DNA of 64,000 bases from positions 307,458,001-307,522,000 of the forward strand of contig OZ024742.1 in the NCBI GenBank assembly GCA_964016885.1, written 5' to 3'. Source of the DNA: Eledone cirrhosa. Taxonomy: Eukaryota. The notes beneath the pieces were generated by a model. It did no database searches, was not told the origin of the DNA, and saw only the letters and a list, made by a program, of their open reading frames with translations. Below, in pieces: positions 39,912-63,804 of this stretch; position 1 is the first letter of the stretch, and every line of letters begins with the position of its first letter. The position numbers and the translations under genes are program-made.

Positions 39912-40111
39912 ATGGATTGACAGGATTGGTAGGGGGTCGGACGCCATGCTTTAACGTATAGAGTTACGGCCCTTGCCATTCTCAGTTCAAATCCCGCCGA
40001 GGTTAACTTTGCCTTTCATCCTTACGGGGTAGATAAAATAAAGTACCAGTAATGCACTGGGTAATTGCTGGCCTAGTGCCAAACGTAGAAACAATTATTA
40101 TTATTATTATT
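39912..40111 (+). mobile_element. SINE family A with (ATT)n tail
   Basis: Head-to-head with the previous SINE across (TAC)n. The tail abuts the 3' end of the R4 element. Confidence 0.85.
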
Positions 40112-43100
40112 ACAGTTGCATTATGTTCATACGAGTTATCACCAAGTCACAACCAGTGACCTCAAGAGACAACAAGGTCCGCCATGTTCAAGAAAGAACA
40201 TACTTACACACACATGCATCTTTAAGTGTTTAGACTTGTGATGTACTTATATTGACAGAATCTTCCTTAGTATATGGGCAGTTCCCATTAGTACTATCTT
40301 TTGTATTTCTCCTATACGCGGGTTTGCTGGGATTTGCGATAAGTAATCATTAGACCCCGTAGGTATCATTCCTAGAGCGCCTACAACCACTGGTATTGTT
40401 TTAGTTCTCAATTTCCACATTTTTCCAATTTCTATCTCCAGGTCCTTATACTTGCTCAATTCTTCAAATGTTTTTATAGATACATTCTTGTCTATTGGAA
40501 CGGAGATATCAATTAGCAAGCATACCCTCTTTTTAAAGTCCTTCAGTATTATATCAGGTCTATTTGCATCTATTTTTCGGTCTGTTTGGATGCTAAAGTT
40601 CCACAAGATTGAGATGTGATCTTTTTCAAGTATGGGAGGTGGTTGATGCTCCCACCAATTCTTTTGATGGAGCAGGTCAAAATGCTCACACATCCAATGC
40701 AATGTATGTATTGTGCAGCTCTGTCATGCCTGTTTAGGTATTCGGTTGGAGCTATAGGACTGCACATTGAATTATATGATCAATTATATGATCAATGGTC
40801 TCTGGTTGTTTTTTACATACACGGCATAATGGGTTGCATCCATTTTTTATTTTGTTGGCTTGGTAAATTTTGTTGGCAGACACTGATCTTGTGCTGATAT
40901 AATCAGTCCTTCAGTCTCCGATTTCAGTCCAGAGGATGCCAACCACTGATGGGGTAAAGTTTTGTCAACATCAGGATTGTTAGCTCTTTCTGGGTATTTT
41001 CCATACAGATGCTTTTCTTGCCATTTCTTAGCCAGTTTCTGTAGCAGTTCTTTCTTTGCAGTTACTTTTACCTGCTTTGCTTTTTCTGTGTTTTTCATTT
41101 CAGCAGTAAATGGAACTTCTGAAATTTGTAGTCCATTACTGTATCTTTGTGCATCTTTTATAATGGAGTAACATCTTTTGATGCTTTCGTGTTTCAAAAC
41201 GAGTTTGATCATCCAATCCTGTGATTCCCTTAGATATGTAGATAATCCAGTTGTTGCAGTTTTCAACGCAATATATAACTGGATTAACCCACCTCCTACT
41301 TTCCTAGGGAGATATATTCTATCTGTATCTGCCTTAGGGTGATGCATTCTGTGCATGGTTAAGAATTTTCTAATTTTTGTATCGAGCCTACAGATCTCTG
41401 TCCTTGACCAGTTGATGACATTGTAACTGTAGGTTACTACTGGTATGGCAAGCGTGTTTATGGCATCGATCCTATTCCTTGCATTCAATTCCGTTCTTAA
41501 GATTGCTCTTACTCTGCGGTAACATTCCTTCCTTATCCTTTCCCTCATTGTCAAGTGCTTGATTCCGTCTCCTTCACAAACACCTAGATATTTGTAAGTT
41601 TCCTCTTGATCAAGTTCTCTTATCACATTTCCCCGATCAAGATTAATGTTTGAACTTTTTCAGCAGCTTTCCACTGGTGAACGTTGCTTTGGCGCATTTA
41701 TCTAGTCCAAACTCCATTTTAATGTCATCACTGAACTGCTCCACAGTGGATAATAGCCCTTGCAATTGTTCATCATTTTTTGCAAATAGTTTCAGGTCAT
41801 CCATGTAGAACAAGTGACTAATGGTTTCGTCATAGACTTTATGTCCATGTTTTGTTTCATTGAGTATTTTACTTAATGGTATAAGTGCGATGTAGAATAA
41901 AAGCGGTGATAAAGGGTCGCCCTGAAAAATTCCACAATTAATATTAACTTCTCCAGCTTCCAGTGATTTCTTTTCAATATTTAGGAGTTTTCCATGTCTT
42001 CATACTGAATGACAGGAACCTCCTGACAACGGGAGATATTTTGAAAATCTCTAAACATATTTCAATCCAACTGTGTGGCAAACTATCGAATGCTTTTTTT
42101 ATAATCTATCCAAGCAATAGATAGATTTTTGTGTCTATTATGACAATCTTCCAGTATCATTTTGTTAACCAAAAGCTGATCTTGACAGCCATATGAGCCT
42201 CGTTTACACCCTTTCTGCTCATTGGGAAATAAATCATTTGTTATCAGGTGGTCATATGTATATTCAGTTCGGACTGATGTTAAAATGTTATACATTGTGG
42301 TCAAGCAAGTTATCGGTCTGTAATTTTTGGGATTGTTTGTCTCCTCATTCTTCGGAAGTAGGCATGTAATGCCTTTAACTAGCAATGATGGTATCTTTTC
42401 TGGCTCCTTAACTATTTCATTGTAAAGGCATTTATCCAAAAATTTGGTATTTTGTCTTTTCCTGGGGATTTCCATTTGCTGGTTTTTCAAGAGCCAAACG
42501 CAACTGTTCAACTGTTATACTTTCCCATGTTTGTTCCTCAAGGTAAGCTGTACCTTTCATTTGTCTGTCTATCCATGGGGCATGTATATTATGAACTTTT
42601 CCTTCGGCCCAGATCTTTTCCCAGAATTCTTGCACTTCCTCCTTGGGTGGTATTGATTTAGCAGTTATTGTTGACTTGCCAATTTTTCTGTAGAAGTTTC
42701 TTTGGTTGTTTTTGAACATATTATTGTCCTTATAGAATCTAGATCGTTTTTCAAAGCGCCTTATACTAGCAGCTTTGGCTGACACTTTTTGTTTGATTAT
42801 TTCTATCAGCATGTCTATGTCAATTGTTGATTTTATACTGATTTTCTTGTCAATTTTAAAGTTTAGTTTCTTTAACATGTTCACCTTCTTTGTAGTTTGT
42901 TAAAATTTCTATGTCAGATCGGAGAAGGTTTATTTGGCGATTGTTGTTCTCTTTCCAAGTAGATTTCTTGTGGGAATTCCTTTGTTTTTTCATTTTCACT
43001 CCACATAAGTGAGTGGTGACTTTAGCCGATGCATAATAAAGATGATTTAGATCAGTAATGTTTAGTTTGTTTGTGATGATAATGTTTTTGAGAATTATGT

Positions 43101-44030
43101 TAGTCTTGTGTATTATCTTTTGGTTCTGTTTGGAGTTCTGGATCTTAGGGAGAGTGTTTCGTTCCCCCATGTCAGATTCTTTCATTTTCATCCATTCGAT
43201 CATAATTTCATCCTTCAAGTTGGCAAGTTCATTCTCATTCATTTCTTTATCATTTATGGTCTCATTATTTTCATTTTGAGTTTCATCTTGAGCATGCACT
43301 CTCTCCACTTTTCCGATGCTTTCTTTAATTTGTTCCGCTGTCAGTGATTCCGCCCCAACCCTGGGATTCGAAGTGTTACAATTTACCTCGTTTTCACTGA
43401 CACATGTTTCATTTTCCCTTCGCTGGCACCTGTGCTAATAGCTTGATCTGAACAATTTCTATATCAGTTAGTAACTATTTTTTAACAATATTTCTTCGTA
43501 TATTGACTAGTTTGTTACTGTCAATATAGCCTCTATTTTCGGGATGTTTCTTTTTCCAGTTGATATATGTCTGTTCTGTATTCGATCTATTTGATGGGTA
43601 GTACATGGGAGTGTAGAAAGCCTCAAGGACTTCTTTATTGTCTTGCTTTGACCATTTTTCTCTCTTTTTCTTTGGATTCCTTGGTGGTGAGAATGGAAGG
43701 CCAACAGTAGGAGTATTCCGGTTATGGGAGGTCTCCAGCTCAGAAGTGATGGGAAGGTTTGAACCATTAGCTGATTTTTCGACCCCAGTCTGTTTCCTCT
43801 CTGAGGGACGCAGCCCTTTTTGACCCGCGTAGCGGCCGATCCGGTATGAGATTTTATCATTTGACATTTACTTTATTTAGTCGCGTTTTATCCTTAACCT
43901 TCAAGGGGTAATCATTTCGTGTTACCACTTCTAGGACGAGTGTCAACCAAGACTAGAGGGGTCGTCCTCCTCTAGAGACACGGCTATACCCCGCCGGCCG
44001 CCATCCCGGTATTTCTTGGTCATGGGGTTT
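40112..44030 (-). mobile_element. near full-length, decayed R4/Dong-clade non-LTR retrotransposon (copy 1)
   Basis: Fragmented ORF from ATG 43867 to stop 40247: N-terminal region, NYRPITCL, WIDYKK, FYMDD, YKYLG, RHD, NRPDII...[14 protein letters not shown]. Many frameshifts. The 3' end lies in (TAA)n. Confidence 0.93.
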
Positions 44031-44183
44031 TCTTTTTTTGTTGTTTTTTAAATTGTTATTATCATGAGTGGTTCCTTAATGTGAGCATTGCATGGCTTAA
44101 GAATGAAATTATTATTAATAATATAATACACTTTTTGTTGAAGTTGCCTGTTGTTGTTGGCTATGTCGCAACAACAGGCAACT

Positions 44184-44215
<32 letters not shown>

Positions 44216-46357
44216 GTTATTTGCATTTATCTTGCTTTATGTTTATACGAGTTATCACCAAGTCACAACCAGTGACCTCAAGAGACAACAAGGTCCGCCA
44301 TGTTCAAGAAAGAACACACATATTCACACATGCATCCTTAGTGTTTAGACTTGTGATGTACTTATATTGACAGGATCTTCCTTAGTATATGGGCAGTTCC
44401 CATTAGTACTATCTTTTGTATTTCTCCTATACGCGGGTTTCCTGGGATTTGCGATAAGTAGTCGTTAGACCCCTTAGGTATCATTCCCAGAGCGCCTACA
44501 ACCACTGGTATTGTTTTAGTTCCCAATTTCCACATTTTTCCAATTTCTATCTCCAGGTCCTTATACTTGCTCAATTTTTCAAATGTTTTTATAGATACAT
44601 TCTTGTCTATTGGAACAGACATATCAATTAGCAGGCATACCCTCCTTTGAAAGTCCTTCAATATTATATCAGGTCTATTTGCATCTATTTTTCGGTCTGT
44701 TTGGATGCTAAAGTTCCACAAGATTGAGATGTGATCTTTTTCAAGTATGGGAGGTGGTTGATGCTCCCACCAATTCTTTTGATGGGGCAGGTCAAAATGC
44801 TTGCACATTATCCAATGTATGTATTGTGCAGCTCTGTCATGCCTGTTTAGGTATTCGGTTGGAGCTATAGGACTGCACATTGAAATTATATGGTCAATGG
44901 TCTCTGGTTGTTTTTTGCATACACGGCATAATGGGCTGCACCCATTTTTTATTATGTTGGCTTGGTAATTTTTTGTTGGCAGACACTGATCTTGTGCGGA
45001 TATAATCAGTCCTTCAGTCTCCGATTTCAGTCCAGAGGATGCCAACCACTGATGGGTTAAAGTTTTGTCAACATCAGGATTGTTAGCTCGCTCTGGGTAT
45101 TTTCCATACAGAGGCTTTTCTTGCCATTTCTTAGCCAGTTTCTGTAGCAGTTCTTTCTTTGCAGTTACTTTTACCTGCTTTGCTTTTTCTGTGTTTTCCA
45201 TTTCAGCAGTAAATGGGACTTCTGAAATTTGTAGTCCATTACTGTATCTTTGTGCATCTTTTGTAATGGAATATGATCTTTTGGTGCTTTCGTGTTTCAA
45301 AACGAGTTTGATCATCCAATCATGTGATTCCCTTAGATATGTGGATAATCCAATTGTTGCAGTTTTCAACGCAATGTCTAACTGGATTAACCCACGTCCT
45401 CCTTCTTTCCCAGGGAGATATATTCTATCTATGTCTGCCTTAGGGTGATGCATTCTGTGCATGGTTAAGAATTTTCGGATTTTTGTATCGAGCCTACGGA
45501 TCTCTGTGCTTGACCAGTTGATGACATTGTAACTGTAGGTTACTACTGGTATGGCAAGCGTGTTTATGGCATCGATCCTATTCCTTGCATTCAATTCCGT
45601 TCTTAAGATTGCTCTGACTCTGCGGTAACATTCCTTCCTTATCCTTTCCCTCATTGTCGAGTGCTTGATTCCGTCTCCTTCACAAACACCTAGATATTTG
45701 TAAGTTTGTTCTTGATCAAGCTCTCTTATCACGTTCCCCCGATCAAGATTAATGTCTGAACTCTTCAGCAGCTTTCCTCTGGTGAACGTTGCTTTGGCGC
45801 ATTTATCCAGTCCAAACTCCATTTTAATGTCATCACTGAACTGCTTCACAGTGGATAATAGCCCTTGCAATTGTTCATCATTTTTTGCAAATAGTTTCAG
45901 GTCATCCATGTAGAACAGGTGATTAATGGTTTTGTCATAGACTCTATATCCATGTTTTGTTTCATTGAGCATTTTACTTAATGGTATAAGTGCGATGCAG
46001 AATAAAAGCGGTGATAAAGAGTCACCCTGAAAAATTCCACAATTAATGTTAACTTCTCCAGCTTCCAGTGATTTTGTTTCACTATTCAAAAGGAGTGTCG
46101 TTCTCCATGTCCTCATACTGAATGACAAAAACCTCCTGATAACGGGGGATATTTTGAAAATCTCTAAACATTTTTCAATCCAACTGTGTGGCAAACTATC
46201 GAATGCTTTTTTATAATCTATCCAAGCAATCGATAGATTTTTGTGTCTATTATGACAATCTTCCAGTATCATTTTGTTAACCAGAAGCTGATCCTTACAG
46301 CCATATGAGCCTCGTTTACACCCTTTCTGCTCAATGGGAAATAGGTCATTTTGGTTA
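44216..46357 (-). mobile_element. 5'-truncated R4/Dong element (copy 2, same family as copy 1)
   Basis: Closely similar to copy 1 including the 3' UTR. Followed by (TAA)n at 44186-44215. Confidence 0.95.
44362..46357 (-). CDS. uninterrupted partial ORF: RT, CCHC zinc knuckle, PD-(D/E)xK restriction-like endonuclease
   Basis: [52 protein letters not shown]. The first ~10 codons of the 674-aa track ORF come from the 3' UTR of the neighbouring element. Confidence 0.9.
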
Positions 46358-48878
46358 ACTGGAAAGTCCGTTGGATTGAATATCAAGCCACTACCTGCAG
46401 CCTCAGATATTCAGGACGTATCGGAGGGTTCTTGCTGTTCCAAGCAAGCATGCCTTTTGAAGCGTTCCAAAAAGCGTGAAGGGGCCGATTTTCTTTAACC
46501 ATCCCTGGAAACCTTTGGAGATAGTCCCCAGTGCGCCTATGACAATCGGGATCACTTTGACTTCATGGCAGTTCCAAATCCTTTTCACCTCCCACTTTAG
46601 GTCCTGGTATCGGTTAATTTTCTCCCTCTCCTTCTCTTGCACTCTCGTGTCGAACGGGCAGGCCACATCCACAATCAGGCACGATCTTTTTTCTTTGTCC
46701 ATAACCACCAGGTCAGGTCTATTGTGTTCCAGTTTTTTGTCCGTCTGTATCCTAAAATCCCACAGCACCTTCACCTGACTGTTCTCCATCACCGCCTCTG
46801 GCCTATGCTCATACCATTTCTCAGAATGTGGTAGATTGTTTACTTTGCACAGGTGCCAGTGGATCACCCTGCCCATCACATCGTGTCTCCAGCCCTTATA
46901 GTGGGTCTGGGCTAGGTGTTTACACTCGGACACAATGTGAGCCACAGTCTCCTCTCTCTCTCCACAGATCCTGCACAGTGGGCTAGCCTCCTCCTTGTTG
47001 ATATGGTGCTTCAACCACTTCGTTTTGAGGGCCTGCTCCTGCGCAGCCATTAGCATTCCTTCTGTAGCCTTTTTGAGGTCTCCTCTTCTCAATCAGTTCC
47101 ATGTCTGTGGATCTCTAAATTCAGTTTTCTCAAAGAAGGTACTATGAAGGGATTTTCCCTTAAGGCTGCTCTTCCTCCTTGATGTTATTTCCTCCTTGGA
47201 CATCCCCTGGCCTACTGTCCCCTCCTTCAGTACAGTTCTGAGCATTGGCTCCTTACTATAGGTCACGTATTTGTATAGGTTGTTTTTCTCCATCTGAACA
47301 CAGTCCTCTATGCTGATAAGACCTCTTCCACCCTCAGATCTCCTTAGGTAGAGTCTATCGACATCACTCCTCTTGTGGAACATGTTGTAGATAGTCAATA
47401 GCTTCCTAGTCTTCCTATCCATTTCTTTTTGTTCAGCAACATTCCATCTCAGAATTCCCGCACTGTACCTAATAATAGACACAGCTCGGGAATTTACTGC
47501 GCTTATGGCATTTCTGCTGTTCAGATGTGACTTCAATACGCTCCTTACTCTCCGAATGTATTCAGTTCTTAACAATTCCTTCATTTTTTTGTTCTTTATG
47601 CCATCAGCCTCCAGAACGCCCAAATACTTGTATCCTTCCTCAGAGTCAATTTCCTTTATCATCTCACCTGTTGGTATCTGGATCCCGTTACTTCTGCTCA
47701 ACCTACCCCTCTTCATCACAATGACTCCACATTTACCAATACCAAACTGCATACATATATCACTGCTGAAAATACGGACAGTGTCAACAAGCACATCCAA
47801 CTCCTTCTCACTTTTCCCGAAGAGCTTAAGATCGTCCATGAAGAGGAGGTGATTGATGGTAAGCTCTCCCCTTCCCAACTTGTATCCTGCTCTCACTTTT
47901 CGCAGCATAATGGTCAAGGGCATCAGGGCAAGGACAAACAACAGAGGGGACAGGCTATCTCCCTGGAAGATACCACTCTTGATCTTTACGCTTCCCAAGG
48001 ATACTCCAGTTGATGTCAACTCTGTCTCCCAGGACCCCATACTCCTGCCCAGCAACTGTCTGATGTTATCTGCCACCCTGAAGACCTCCAGGCTTTTGGT
48101 GATCCAGGAATGAGGCACCATGTCAAATGCCTTTCTGTAGTCTATCCATCCCATGGCAAGATCAGTGTGTCTCCTCCTGCAATTCCCCATTACCATCTTA
48201 TCAATAAGCAACTGGTCCTTTGTACCACGTGACTTCTTTCGGCATCCTTTCTGTTCGTCCGGTAACAAGTTGTTTGTGTGGAGGTGATGGTAGATTTCCT
48301 CAGACACAATGCTCGTCAACAGTTTCCACATTACGGGCAGACATGTGATAGGTCTATAGTTGGTAACATCATTACCCTTCATTCGGTCTTTCATTATCAG
48401 AACTGTGGTACCTTTTGTCAACCACTCTGGCACCTCACCCGACACCAAGCAGTCATTGAACATGGCCGTCAGCTTCGGGTGGAGGGATGTTAAATGTTTA
48501 ATCCAATACCCCTGCACACCATCTGGGCCTGGTGATTTCCAGTTGGTTAGTTTTTTGGCTTGCCCCTTAAGAGTTTCAACTGTGATACTCAAATCAGTCT
48601 GTTGTTGTGCCTTCTCACCGATCTCCCTCTGTACTGTCTCAATCCACCCTGCCTGGGCATTGTGTCTAACATCCTGCTCCCATATTCCTCTGCAGAATGT
48701 TTTAGCTTGTTCCGCCCCAGGGATCAAGTCGTTGCCTCTTTCTTTCCCCTCAAGCTGTCCAAACAGCATCTTCTGGTTGTTGTCGAACATGCGGTTCTGT
48801 TTATACTGACTGACTCTGTTCTCGTATCGCCTGATTTTGGCACTCTTTGCTACAATGCGTTGCTTCAATTCCTCTATG
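46358..48878 (-). mobile_element. 5'-truncated R4/Dong element of a different family (copy 3)
   Basis: Single reading frame 48878-46403 with RT (LFMDD), CRIC...H...C, RHD and RPD. One in-frame TGA at 47093-47095. The 5' end abuts (TAA)n at 48879-48977. Confidence 0.95.
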
Positions 48879-48977
<99 letters not shown>

Positions 48978-49819
48978 GTGTATTTGACACCGGAGTTAAA
49001 TGCTTTTCGGCATCTTTCATTCATTTATCTTGTTGGCATCGGTTGGTTTTTACTTTGCTTGAGGTGTGCATTCATTCTAATAGTGACAGTTTTATAATTG
49101 GCTTTTACTTGTACTTGACCTCTGCCAACCAATTTCATTTTATACATAGCTTATGGACATCTGCCTCTGGCTGATGTCTATGAGACATCGTGATGAGTTT
49201 GCTGCCATTGCAGACCAAATTCACTCTATTACTGAGATTCAATTCAATGCTAACGATACTTGTCAACGAACGAGCTTCAATGGTGTTCAGTCTTTCTTTG
49301 TTTTTCTTGTTATTTTGAATTAACCTATTCGCCAACAACAAATTTCCCTTGACGACTGTATATTCAGATAACGATTTTTAATTTTGCTTTCTTTAATTTG
49401 GTTATAGATTAACATCTTTGAATTCTCTGCAGAGCTTAATATCATTTAATATATATCCTATAAGATCATAGTTGAATTGCTGGGTACTTGTTCAATAATG
49501 TACTGTTCTGTTGTGTTTTGACTATTCTTGTTTCTTTCTGCTTTAGTTAACCTGGACCATGTAGTTATCTAAAGAAACAAGGGAAAAAATTCGACGTTTT
49601 TTACAACCTAGTGACTCATTTTACTCTTTTCACACACTGGATAGCGATTTATGCGGGGACGTCCCCTTCAAGATTTTAGTTTTTAGTCACAGTATCTATT
49701 TCACCCTGATACTTATTCTATAGATCTCTATTTACAGAACAGCTATGTTATGCGACATAAAATAACATAGAATTTTAGAGCAATTATTACATAAATAGTG
49801 ACACAGACACACACCAATG

Positions 49820-63317: not shown

Positions 63318-63804
63318 TGGACATCCTGCAGGACTAAAAACAAAACCTGTCAAAGGGTAAAGGAGCTCTTAAGAGTCAATGGCTATCCAAAATCACCGGG
63401 AGAGATGACCCCTTAGCCTTTGTCAAGGCAGAATTCTAGGGGAAGGAAAACTCTGTTATAACACTTGCAACCCTGATGGTATCCAATGATGTTGACTTGT
63501 TCTTCTTTTTGGTAAATATCATCTTGGTTAAGAGAGTGGGACTGGCTTTGTGCAGTGCCTTTGCTCACTATAAAAGCTTCACGGCACAGGCATTGCTTTA
63601 TATCTGGAGATCTCTCTGCACTTGTCGTCACATGGTACCATGGGCCCAGCACTATGTGTCAATAATTGCCACAAGTGTAGTGTTTGTACCAGAGATTTCA
63701 AGTAGCTGGCTGGACTAAAAAGTCACACTCGTTCAGCGCATCGGTAGGGGTTCTCCAACATGGATATAAAGTAGTGGCCGTACTCGAAAACGAGTTGGCA
63801 GCCA

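Follow-up and report, generated by a model that had tools for sequence, protein, structure and literature searches.

A knotted leader RNA shared by R4/Dong and RTE elements, a putative host-factor-binding translation-initiation element

Leader RNAs of related elements and the fold in the window

RNA structures have been described in the leaders of several long interspersed nuclear elements (LINEs). B. mori Dong and Ascaris R4 have at their 5′ ends tested ribozymes that resemble the one of hepatitis delta virus (HDV; PMC3774820). In R2, leader RNAs, a pseudoknot among them, have been proposed to promote cap-independent initiation, and a conserved pseudoknot in the 5′ RNA regulates integration (PMC12203849). 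In RTE elements from vertebrates to cnidarians, a domain in the middle of the 5′ untranslated region (UTR) is well conserved, and it recurs in R4-1_ADi, in Ingi-3_AC and in independently born short interspersed nuclear elements (SINEs); the available text of that report gives no fold for the domain and speculates that it binds transcriptional regulators (PMC5786205). Five recently active Dong-R4 families have also been reported (PMC13282606). Here we describe a 95-nt structured leader RNA in a decayed R4/Dong-type LINE on the minus strand of a 64,000-nt stretch of the Eledone cirrhosa genome (contig OZ024742.1, positions 307,458,001 to 307,522,000; “the window”, whose coordinates are used below). 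The RNA, at 43933..44027, is predicted to form seven helices with three interlocked knots. Its fold is present in both R4 elements, which have a restriction-like endonuclease (RLE), and RTE elements, which have an apurinic endonuclease (APE). The first-pass annotation of this DNA had proposed a real pseudoknotted fold that should covary in homologous UTRs, and matched changes, crossing pairs included, were indeed found in both R4 and RTE homologues.

The 3′ half of the motif corresponds to the 3′ half of the RTE 5′-UTR or Ceph-SINE domain, which reads AGCCTTGG..GGCA..TAG..GAAGGAAAACTC (PMC5786205). The version in the window reads AGTCTTGG..GACA..TAG and is bridged to that block by two metagenomic R4 loci, L227 and L224, and by RTE families of the same genome. 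Like the RTE/Ceph domain, the motif is internal in its 5′ UTR, whereas the octopus-type family has diverged from that domain and lost the GGAAAACTC tail. The complement that forms helix E can be read by eye in the published sequences of RTE-3_BF, OegopSINE and Sepioth-SINE2A (AGACGGA/TTCGTCT, AGATTGG/CCAGTCT and GACTAG/CTAGTC; PMC5786205). Three strings from the 5′ half (P0, AAAUA and hairpin F) gave 0 matches in the supplement text of the same paper, figures excluded. No description of the fold was found in the literature searched, whose scope left subscription papers outside and does not establish absence from print; within it, the motif is partly known as sequence and undescribed as structure.

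In the 5′ to 3′ direction of the RNA, the strands follow the order P0, A, AAAUA, F, loop, F′, P0′, PK′, C, D, loop, D′, A′, C′, E′. The parts are as follows.

44023..44027, minus strand: 5′ strand of helix P0, CCCCG in the family and CpG-decayed to CCCCA here; partner 43989-43993
44014..44021, minus strand: 5′ strand of helix A, GACCAAGA, closed by a G.U pair; partner 43945-43952
44010..44014, minus strand: unpaired AAAUA linker, conserved, its AATAC columns invariant in the alignment of homologues
43994..44009, minus strand: hairpin F, with a CCGG stem and an 8-nt loop
43989..43993, minus strand: 3′ strand of P0, CGGGG, with double changes
43977..43981, minus strand: 5′ strand of helix C, GTGTC, the weakest helix; partner GACAC at 43940-43944
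43953..43975, minus strand: hairpin D, CTAGAGG/CCTCTAG, with the 7-nt loop AGGACGA at 43962-43968
43933..43939, minus strand: 3′ strand of helix E, TCGTCCT, pairing with the loop of hairpin D; the best-supported pseudoknot

All five complementary pairs named in the first-pass annotation occur in the minus-strand sequence of 43933-44021, the stretch it described as GC-rich (59.6% GC) and placed about 65 nt upstream of the open reading frame (ORF); the gap to the ATG at 43867 is exactly 65 nt. That extent is nevertheless too short, since the fold reaches 44027 through the additional helix P0. Three helices had been overlooked, namely P0, the stem of hairpin F and the knot formed by its loop, in which GGC (44000-44002) is predicted to pair with GCC at 43982-43984. 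Among the five helices originally drawn, A, C, D and E are backed by matched changes, but the CGGC/GCCG hairpin is unsupported. It conflicts with the GTGTC/GACAC helix over G43981, which both claim, and this end G of helix C is A in 17/104 copies of the element's family (family A, below). The hairpin shows 0 double changes, and 4/20 of its cells are broken in homologues, whereas CCGG/CCGG, in which 44009-44006 pair with 43997-43994, is a covarying alternative. In the fold as modelled, all helices would form simultaneously, with C the least secure.

Covariation between and within lineages

Homologues were sought in metagenomes and in the 3.0-Gb genome of the same species. In the metagenomes, the best 80 of 462 confirmed R4 loci were examined; 24 have the N-terminal region, and 18 of these have a 5′ flank. 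L227 and L224, at 43-44% identity in reverse transcriptase (RT), carry the whole motif, and L224 is 5′-truncated. L219, L238 and L264, also among the 18 loci, have the AAUA-hairpin part only, and L216 has the 3′ flank of the motif, at which its contig begins. In the species' own genome, a profile built from R4 seeds detected the motif in an old RTE family with an APE-type ORF (E 0.17, one decayed copy), of which 28 copies were aligned. A pattern search recovered a second RTE-type family of 4 copies in which the 3′ half is kept and the 5′ half is simplified. These make up four of the nine pattern matches in this genome, and four others were dropped as partial or chance; L347, which looks like a decayed full motif, was left out of the analysis. 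The window itself has another copy of the 3′ half, a decayed one, at 63397-63465 on the plus strand, within an RTE-type leader fragment (profile E 0.0009).

Six lineages were compared, with helix registers set by hand. Both partners had changed at 4/7 positions of E, 3/4 of hairpin F, 2/5 of P0, 2/7 of A, 1/3 of the F-loop knot, 1/5 of C and 1/4 at the top of D, and one broken cell each was found in A, C and D. P0 is CCCCG/CGGGG in R4 copies and GCGCG/CGCGC in one RTE family. The stem of hairpin F varies among CCGG/CCGG, CTGG/CCAG and TCAG/CTGA, and the F-loop knot among GGC/GCC, GGC/GTC and GAT/GTC. In helix C, the end pair is doubly changed in L227 and L224, and the helix could not be placed in the RTE families. 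One strand of the second RTE family as scored is one letter off its majority, a difference that still leaves a G.U pair.

In an unedited MAFFT alignment of 8 rows, 13/38 pairs were doubly changed, against 7.7 ± 1.6 when shuffled (0/500 shuffles reached the observed count) and 3-6 when the same pairs were slid along the alignment. The rows are related, and the shuffle figures are not probabilities. P0 is unsupported in this alignment because its three RTE rows are shifted by 1-2 columns, and two of the helix A changes counted may be artefacts.

The window sequence by itself is only moderate evidence for the fold, because three disjoint 7-bp helices arise by chance in 128/2000 shuffles. Nested folding is unremarkable (z −0.96, with 40/200 shuffles equally good). 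When pseudoknots are allowed, the motif scores −49.8 against −39.1 ± 3.6, a value reached by 1/300 dinucleotide shuffles; the optimal pseudoknotted set consists of A, D and E, without C and without the CGGC/GCCG hairpin as drawn. Rfam gave no match over the motif, whether searched with the motif region (up to E 10) or with four homologous loci (up to E 1).

Within family A, the third pair of the E knot is A-T in 60 of the 104 copies, G-C in 43, G-T in 1 and A-C in 0. The two substitutions are the sole differences in 265 nt that separate two subfamilies, and they fall on the two sides of one predicted pair. The chance of both landing on one pair is about 0.001 for one branch, and this is a single event. 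Both E-knot changes also occur in contigs from two other organisms; in the species itself they hold about 85% and 78% of depth. Two related organisms are too close to add covarying pairs beyond this E pair, and a search for an older subfamily yielded 5 decayed copies. The subfamily with the A-U form of E (A2; for example L044 and L046) has a SINE-like insert in the leader in 58/60 copies, just upstream of the position equivalent to 44112. The single G.U copy, L046, also bears the insert, which suggests that the pair changed through G.U.

Pattern searches of viral contigs gave 0, 16 and 2 matches, none with the fold, and phages gave no motif match. The 1 match in prokaryote genomes lies in coding-like DNA without the other helices and was taken as chance.

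The host element and the place of the fold within it

The element and its surroundings in the window comprise the following features.

40247..43867, minus strand: R4/Dong-type LINE with an RLE, a decayed single ORF
40095..40112, minus strand: (TAA)n tract at the 3′ end of the element
43868..43915, minus strand: short upstream ORF; the majority sequence of the family has 15 codons, the TAA immediately preceding the main ATG, and the window copy meets an earlier stop
44028..44168, minus strand: what is left of a 1.14-kb 5′ leader, the copy being truncated here
44169..44185, no strand: inverted duplication of 17 nt where the 5′ end is truncated, adjoining the (TAA)n tract at 44186-44217

The copy belongs to a young family, family A, whose intact members encode 1216 amino acids in a single ORF, with RT first, then a CCHC finger and then the restriction-like endonuclease, as in R4/Dong elements. 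The CCHC and PD..D motifs can be read off the family sequence, and we take them to be the finger and nuclease signatures. A copy of the family in the window contains an RVT_1 domain, and R2 proteins are the closest relatives of the element protein in the PDB; a protein search with residues 60-330 found nothing. Family A inserts into (TAA)n repeats, again as R4/Dong elements do. The upstream ORF ending in TAA-ATG is not common to family B, family C, L227 or L224. Between 40095 and 49024 on the minus strand, three truncated R4/Dong copies of two families lie head-to-tail, joined by (TAA)n tracts; one of them is a truncated copy of family B at 46403-49024.

The first-pass annotation had placed the motif at the 5′ end of a full-length element. 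The window copy is instead 5′-truncated near 44168, and full-length copies extend about 980 nt further. A search of the genome with the motif region gave 991 candidates, and among the 30 loci aligned, 20 extend by these 980 nt or so to a sharp 5′ boundary. Among 85 distinct copies drawn from the 150 ORF-start matches listed, 37 read through the motif to the true head and 3 start at its 5′ edge; intermediate start values in this set rest on a chaining heuristic. Because copies extend to a sharp head and 37/85 read through, the motif is the end of a long leader and not a 5′ end. The leader of family A is 1.14 kb long with 11 AUGs, and the motif closes it. L227 has 8 AUGs upstream of its motif, and the distance from motif to ATG is 65, 72 and 71 nt in three R4 lineages and 227 nt in an RTE family.

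Intactness of the motif despite ORF decay had also been offered as an argument for function, and this does not hold: paired sites decay as fast as the flanks, with post-insertion changes at 1.19% per paired site against 1.05-1.40% in the flanks (104 copies), so that decay is neutral. The window copy departs from the family majority at 44023, 43988 and 43971.

The head of family A is common to family B, whose protein is only 36% identical. Families C and D have no alignable motif. Before its ATG, family B has a covarying knot of another kind, in which the subfamilies differ as GCCA/TGGC and GTCA/TGAC (L082:2165-2280 and L066:5425-5560), and its leader also has a variable hairpin and further predicted knots in its tail. 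The string GGGATGGCGG, common to families A and B, was considered as a conserved core and dropped on finding it changed in the other subfamily of B; it may be the loop of hairpin F. A nucleotide likeness at the ORF start (43720-43860 on the minus strand, L216:90-190 and family C), with the complement CCTCAG..CTGAG/CTGGGG, possibly reflects RNA structure within the ORF.

Translation initiation and its alternatives

We favour, with confidence a little below even, a putative translation-initiation element that would bind a host factor. The leader RNA of these single-gene LINEs would fold into three interlocked knots, a host factor would bind the knotted RNA, and ribosomes would thereby be helped to start at the element ATG, past a long leader of false starts. 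Non-coding SINEs would have retained the 3′ half as a means of docking on ribosomes engaged in translation, the site at which RT is newly made; Alu provides an analogy for such docking. A host factor is the proposed partner because the RLE and APE clades encode very different proteins and have the same fold and unpaired letters, and initiation is the proposed step because the motif ends an AUG-rich leader near the ORF start. The translation-initiation role suggested in the first-pass annotation is a candidate. Such a role would bear on the translation of single-ORF LINEs whose leaders are long and rich in AUGs, and on why unrelated SINEs keep a piece of an RTE leader, whose function is left speculative in PMC5786205. 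With the pairs of a covariation-backed fold named, function becomes testable, and as RTE UTRs are being empirically optimised as gene-writing templates (PMC13708176), a defined leader structure could guide that work.

Several observations weigh against this reading. The whole motif is present in only 2 of the 18 metagenomic R4 loci that have a 5′ flank (L227 and L224), and the full motif was not found in families B and C, which are sisters with equally long leaders. The spacing to the ATG varies from 65 to 227 nt with 1-4 AUGs between motif and ORF, unlike an internal ribosome entry site (IRES) that sets the start, and no Rfam IRES family matched over the motif to E 10. The head shared by families A and B probably bears the promoter, so that the element RNA is probably capped. 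An RT handle explains the retention of the 3′ half in SINEs equally simply, and the small excess of insertions just 5′ of the fold, considered below, is not predicted by translation.

That the motif is instead a recognition handle for the element's own protein, loading the RT or triggering second-strand cleavage as the R2 5′ RNA does, seems unlikely. Both RNAs are pseudoknots near the ORF start of an RLE LINE, translation and protein-binding roles have been proposed for that of R2, and the R2 pseudoknot regulates integration (PMC12203849); R2 proteins are also the nearest solved relatives. Retention in non-coding SINEs would suit a mobilisation signal acting in cis (PMC5786205), and families A and B share a head yet keep different knots beside their own ORFs. 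However, the same fold and unpaired letters are common to RLE and APE elements and to R4 elements at only 43-44% RT identity, whereas the R2 signal is confined to some R2 lineages (PMC12203849).

The remaining RNA-level readings draw in part on where insertions begin. Insertions joined to (TAA)n were counted by eye as distinct loci per interval of about 30 nt, with one interval within the motif left out. The interval at the 5′ edge of the motif has 32 loci, 20 of them within 6 nt of P0. The adjoining upstream interval has 24 (edge excess p 0.35), a further one 13, of which about 4 are internal deletions, and the downstream intervals 7 and 13 (p 7e-5 and 0.007). Inside the motif there are 18 loci, 9 of them at one internal AATA microhomology (p 0.06). 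A similar TAAAAC site downstream has 2 loci against the 20 at the P0 edge (p 1e-4). Because the upstream interval holds 24 loci and the AATA site 9, microhomology explains much of the edge excess. Against the 20 at P0 stand about 960 junctions at the head in families A and B combined, 481 of them on one strand. To judge by these junctions, a minor second 5′ end is possible, and efficient cleavage at the motif edge is not.

A block to 5′-to-3′ exonucleases, at which Xrn1 would be stopped and the protected ORF-containing RNA would still be copyable, is improbable. As in the class 1 flaviviral exonuclease-resistant RNAs (xrRNAs), the motif has a three-way junction (A, D and E), a loop that pairs 3′ of the closing stem, and a 5′ flank that is knotted too (PMC13161572, PMC8374639), and the accumulation of (TAA)n-joined insertions at the P0 edge (20 against 2 at the TAAAAC site) is what such a block could leave. 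Against it stand the microhomology counts just given and the geometry: the ring is about 22-24 nt by count against 15-16 in class 1, the D′-A′ junction has at most 1 unpaired base, the nucleotides of the flaviviral PK1 and base triple are lacking, P1 and P3 are longer and the fold is larger. No Rfam xrRNA matched, to E 10 in the motif region or to E 1 in the four homologous loci.

A self-cleaving ribozyme of a new class, with an HDV-like scaffold, another active site and an inefficient cut 5′ of P0 that would free the ORF, is to our minds just as doubtful as the exonuclease block. With the revised helices the motif is a nested double pseudoknot whose strands (P0, A, F, loop, F′, P0′, PK′, D, A′) are arranged as in HDV (P1, P2, P3, L3, P3′, P1′, P1.1′, P4, P2′), the 3-bp pair resembling P1.1 having one double change. 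The unpaired letters are conserved, the junction excess is at the matching spot, and the motif has the same place before the ORF, in the same clade, as the R2/R4/Dong ribozymes, including the tested B. mori Dong and Ascaris R4 examples (PMC3774820). Unlike them, it lies about 1 kb inside the 5′ end and adds a 7-bp knot from the P4 loop to the tail; its P3 has 4-5 bp, its loop is purine-rich and of reversed polarity, and no catalytic C strand is present, CAG or TAG preceding A′ with no conserved C. Few insertions start at the predicted cut, given the 37/85 copies that read through to the head against 3/85 that start at the motif, and the roughly 960 head junctions. In SINEs whose tRNA heads are intact, the 3′ half is preserved at an internal position (PMC5786205). 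The 5′-end site, on which the first-pass annotation had based a ribozyme, is thereby removed as a ground.

An HDV descriptor that asks for the catalytic C, L3 and a 3-bp P3 had 0 matches in family A on either strand, head included. It recovered its positive control, L147, and is loose (176 matches in a GT-rich stretch of family B). This control (L147:2450-2570) comes from a viral contig that carries a Dong-type LINE within (TAA)n; the 5′ end of that LINE has a canonical HDV-like fold. The hammerhead core CTGANGA occurs on neither strand, Rfam Hammerhead_1 scoring 15.1 bits, antisense, against a cut-off of 34. No twister was found to E 10 at the motif or to E 1 in four homologous loci. The earlier statement setting the motif apart from canonical HDV, hammerhead and twister ribozymes is therefore borne out. 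Likenesses to group I P7, pistol, hatchet and the intergenic-region IRES were considered and dropped.

Very improbable is a DNA-level site for a transcription factor, or a relic kept by drift: transcriptional-regulator binding has been suggested (PMC5786205) and post-insertion decay is neutral, but six helices show matched changes, long-range crossing pairs among them, which call for a folded single strand.

A broader proposition, which we regard as rather unlikely, is that the motif represents a phylum-spanning class of LINE leader RNA, swapped between RLE and APE elements, kept by SINEs and built on a rewired HDV scaffold. It would then either make a second RNA 5′ end shortly ahead of the ORF, by cleaving itself or by blocking exonucleases, or be the first compact ribosome-recruiting knot of animal LINEs, through which SINEs would hijack RT. 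Were it to cut RNA or block Xrn1, the motif would add a new class to the RNAs of animal genomes.

Other R4 elements have further structures at their 5′ ends. Three (L219:55-115, L238:75-150 and L264:420-480) start with GCGCCAG adjoining (TAA)n, and this start complements the loop of an AAUA-hairpin that resembles hairpin F, with TCGG/CCGA against CCGG/CCGG. To judge from their sequences, these elements could carry a related fold at a true 5′ end, where it would be a better ribozyme candidate. Three others (L218:10-90, L221:85-170 and L233:105-185) have 5′ ends that appear tRNA-like by eye. Over the whole window, the only Rfam match at the gathering score is a U2 small nuclear RNA copy at 1-191 on the plus strand (117 bits), which has an 8-nt deletion.
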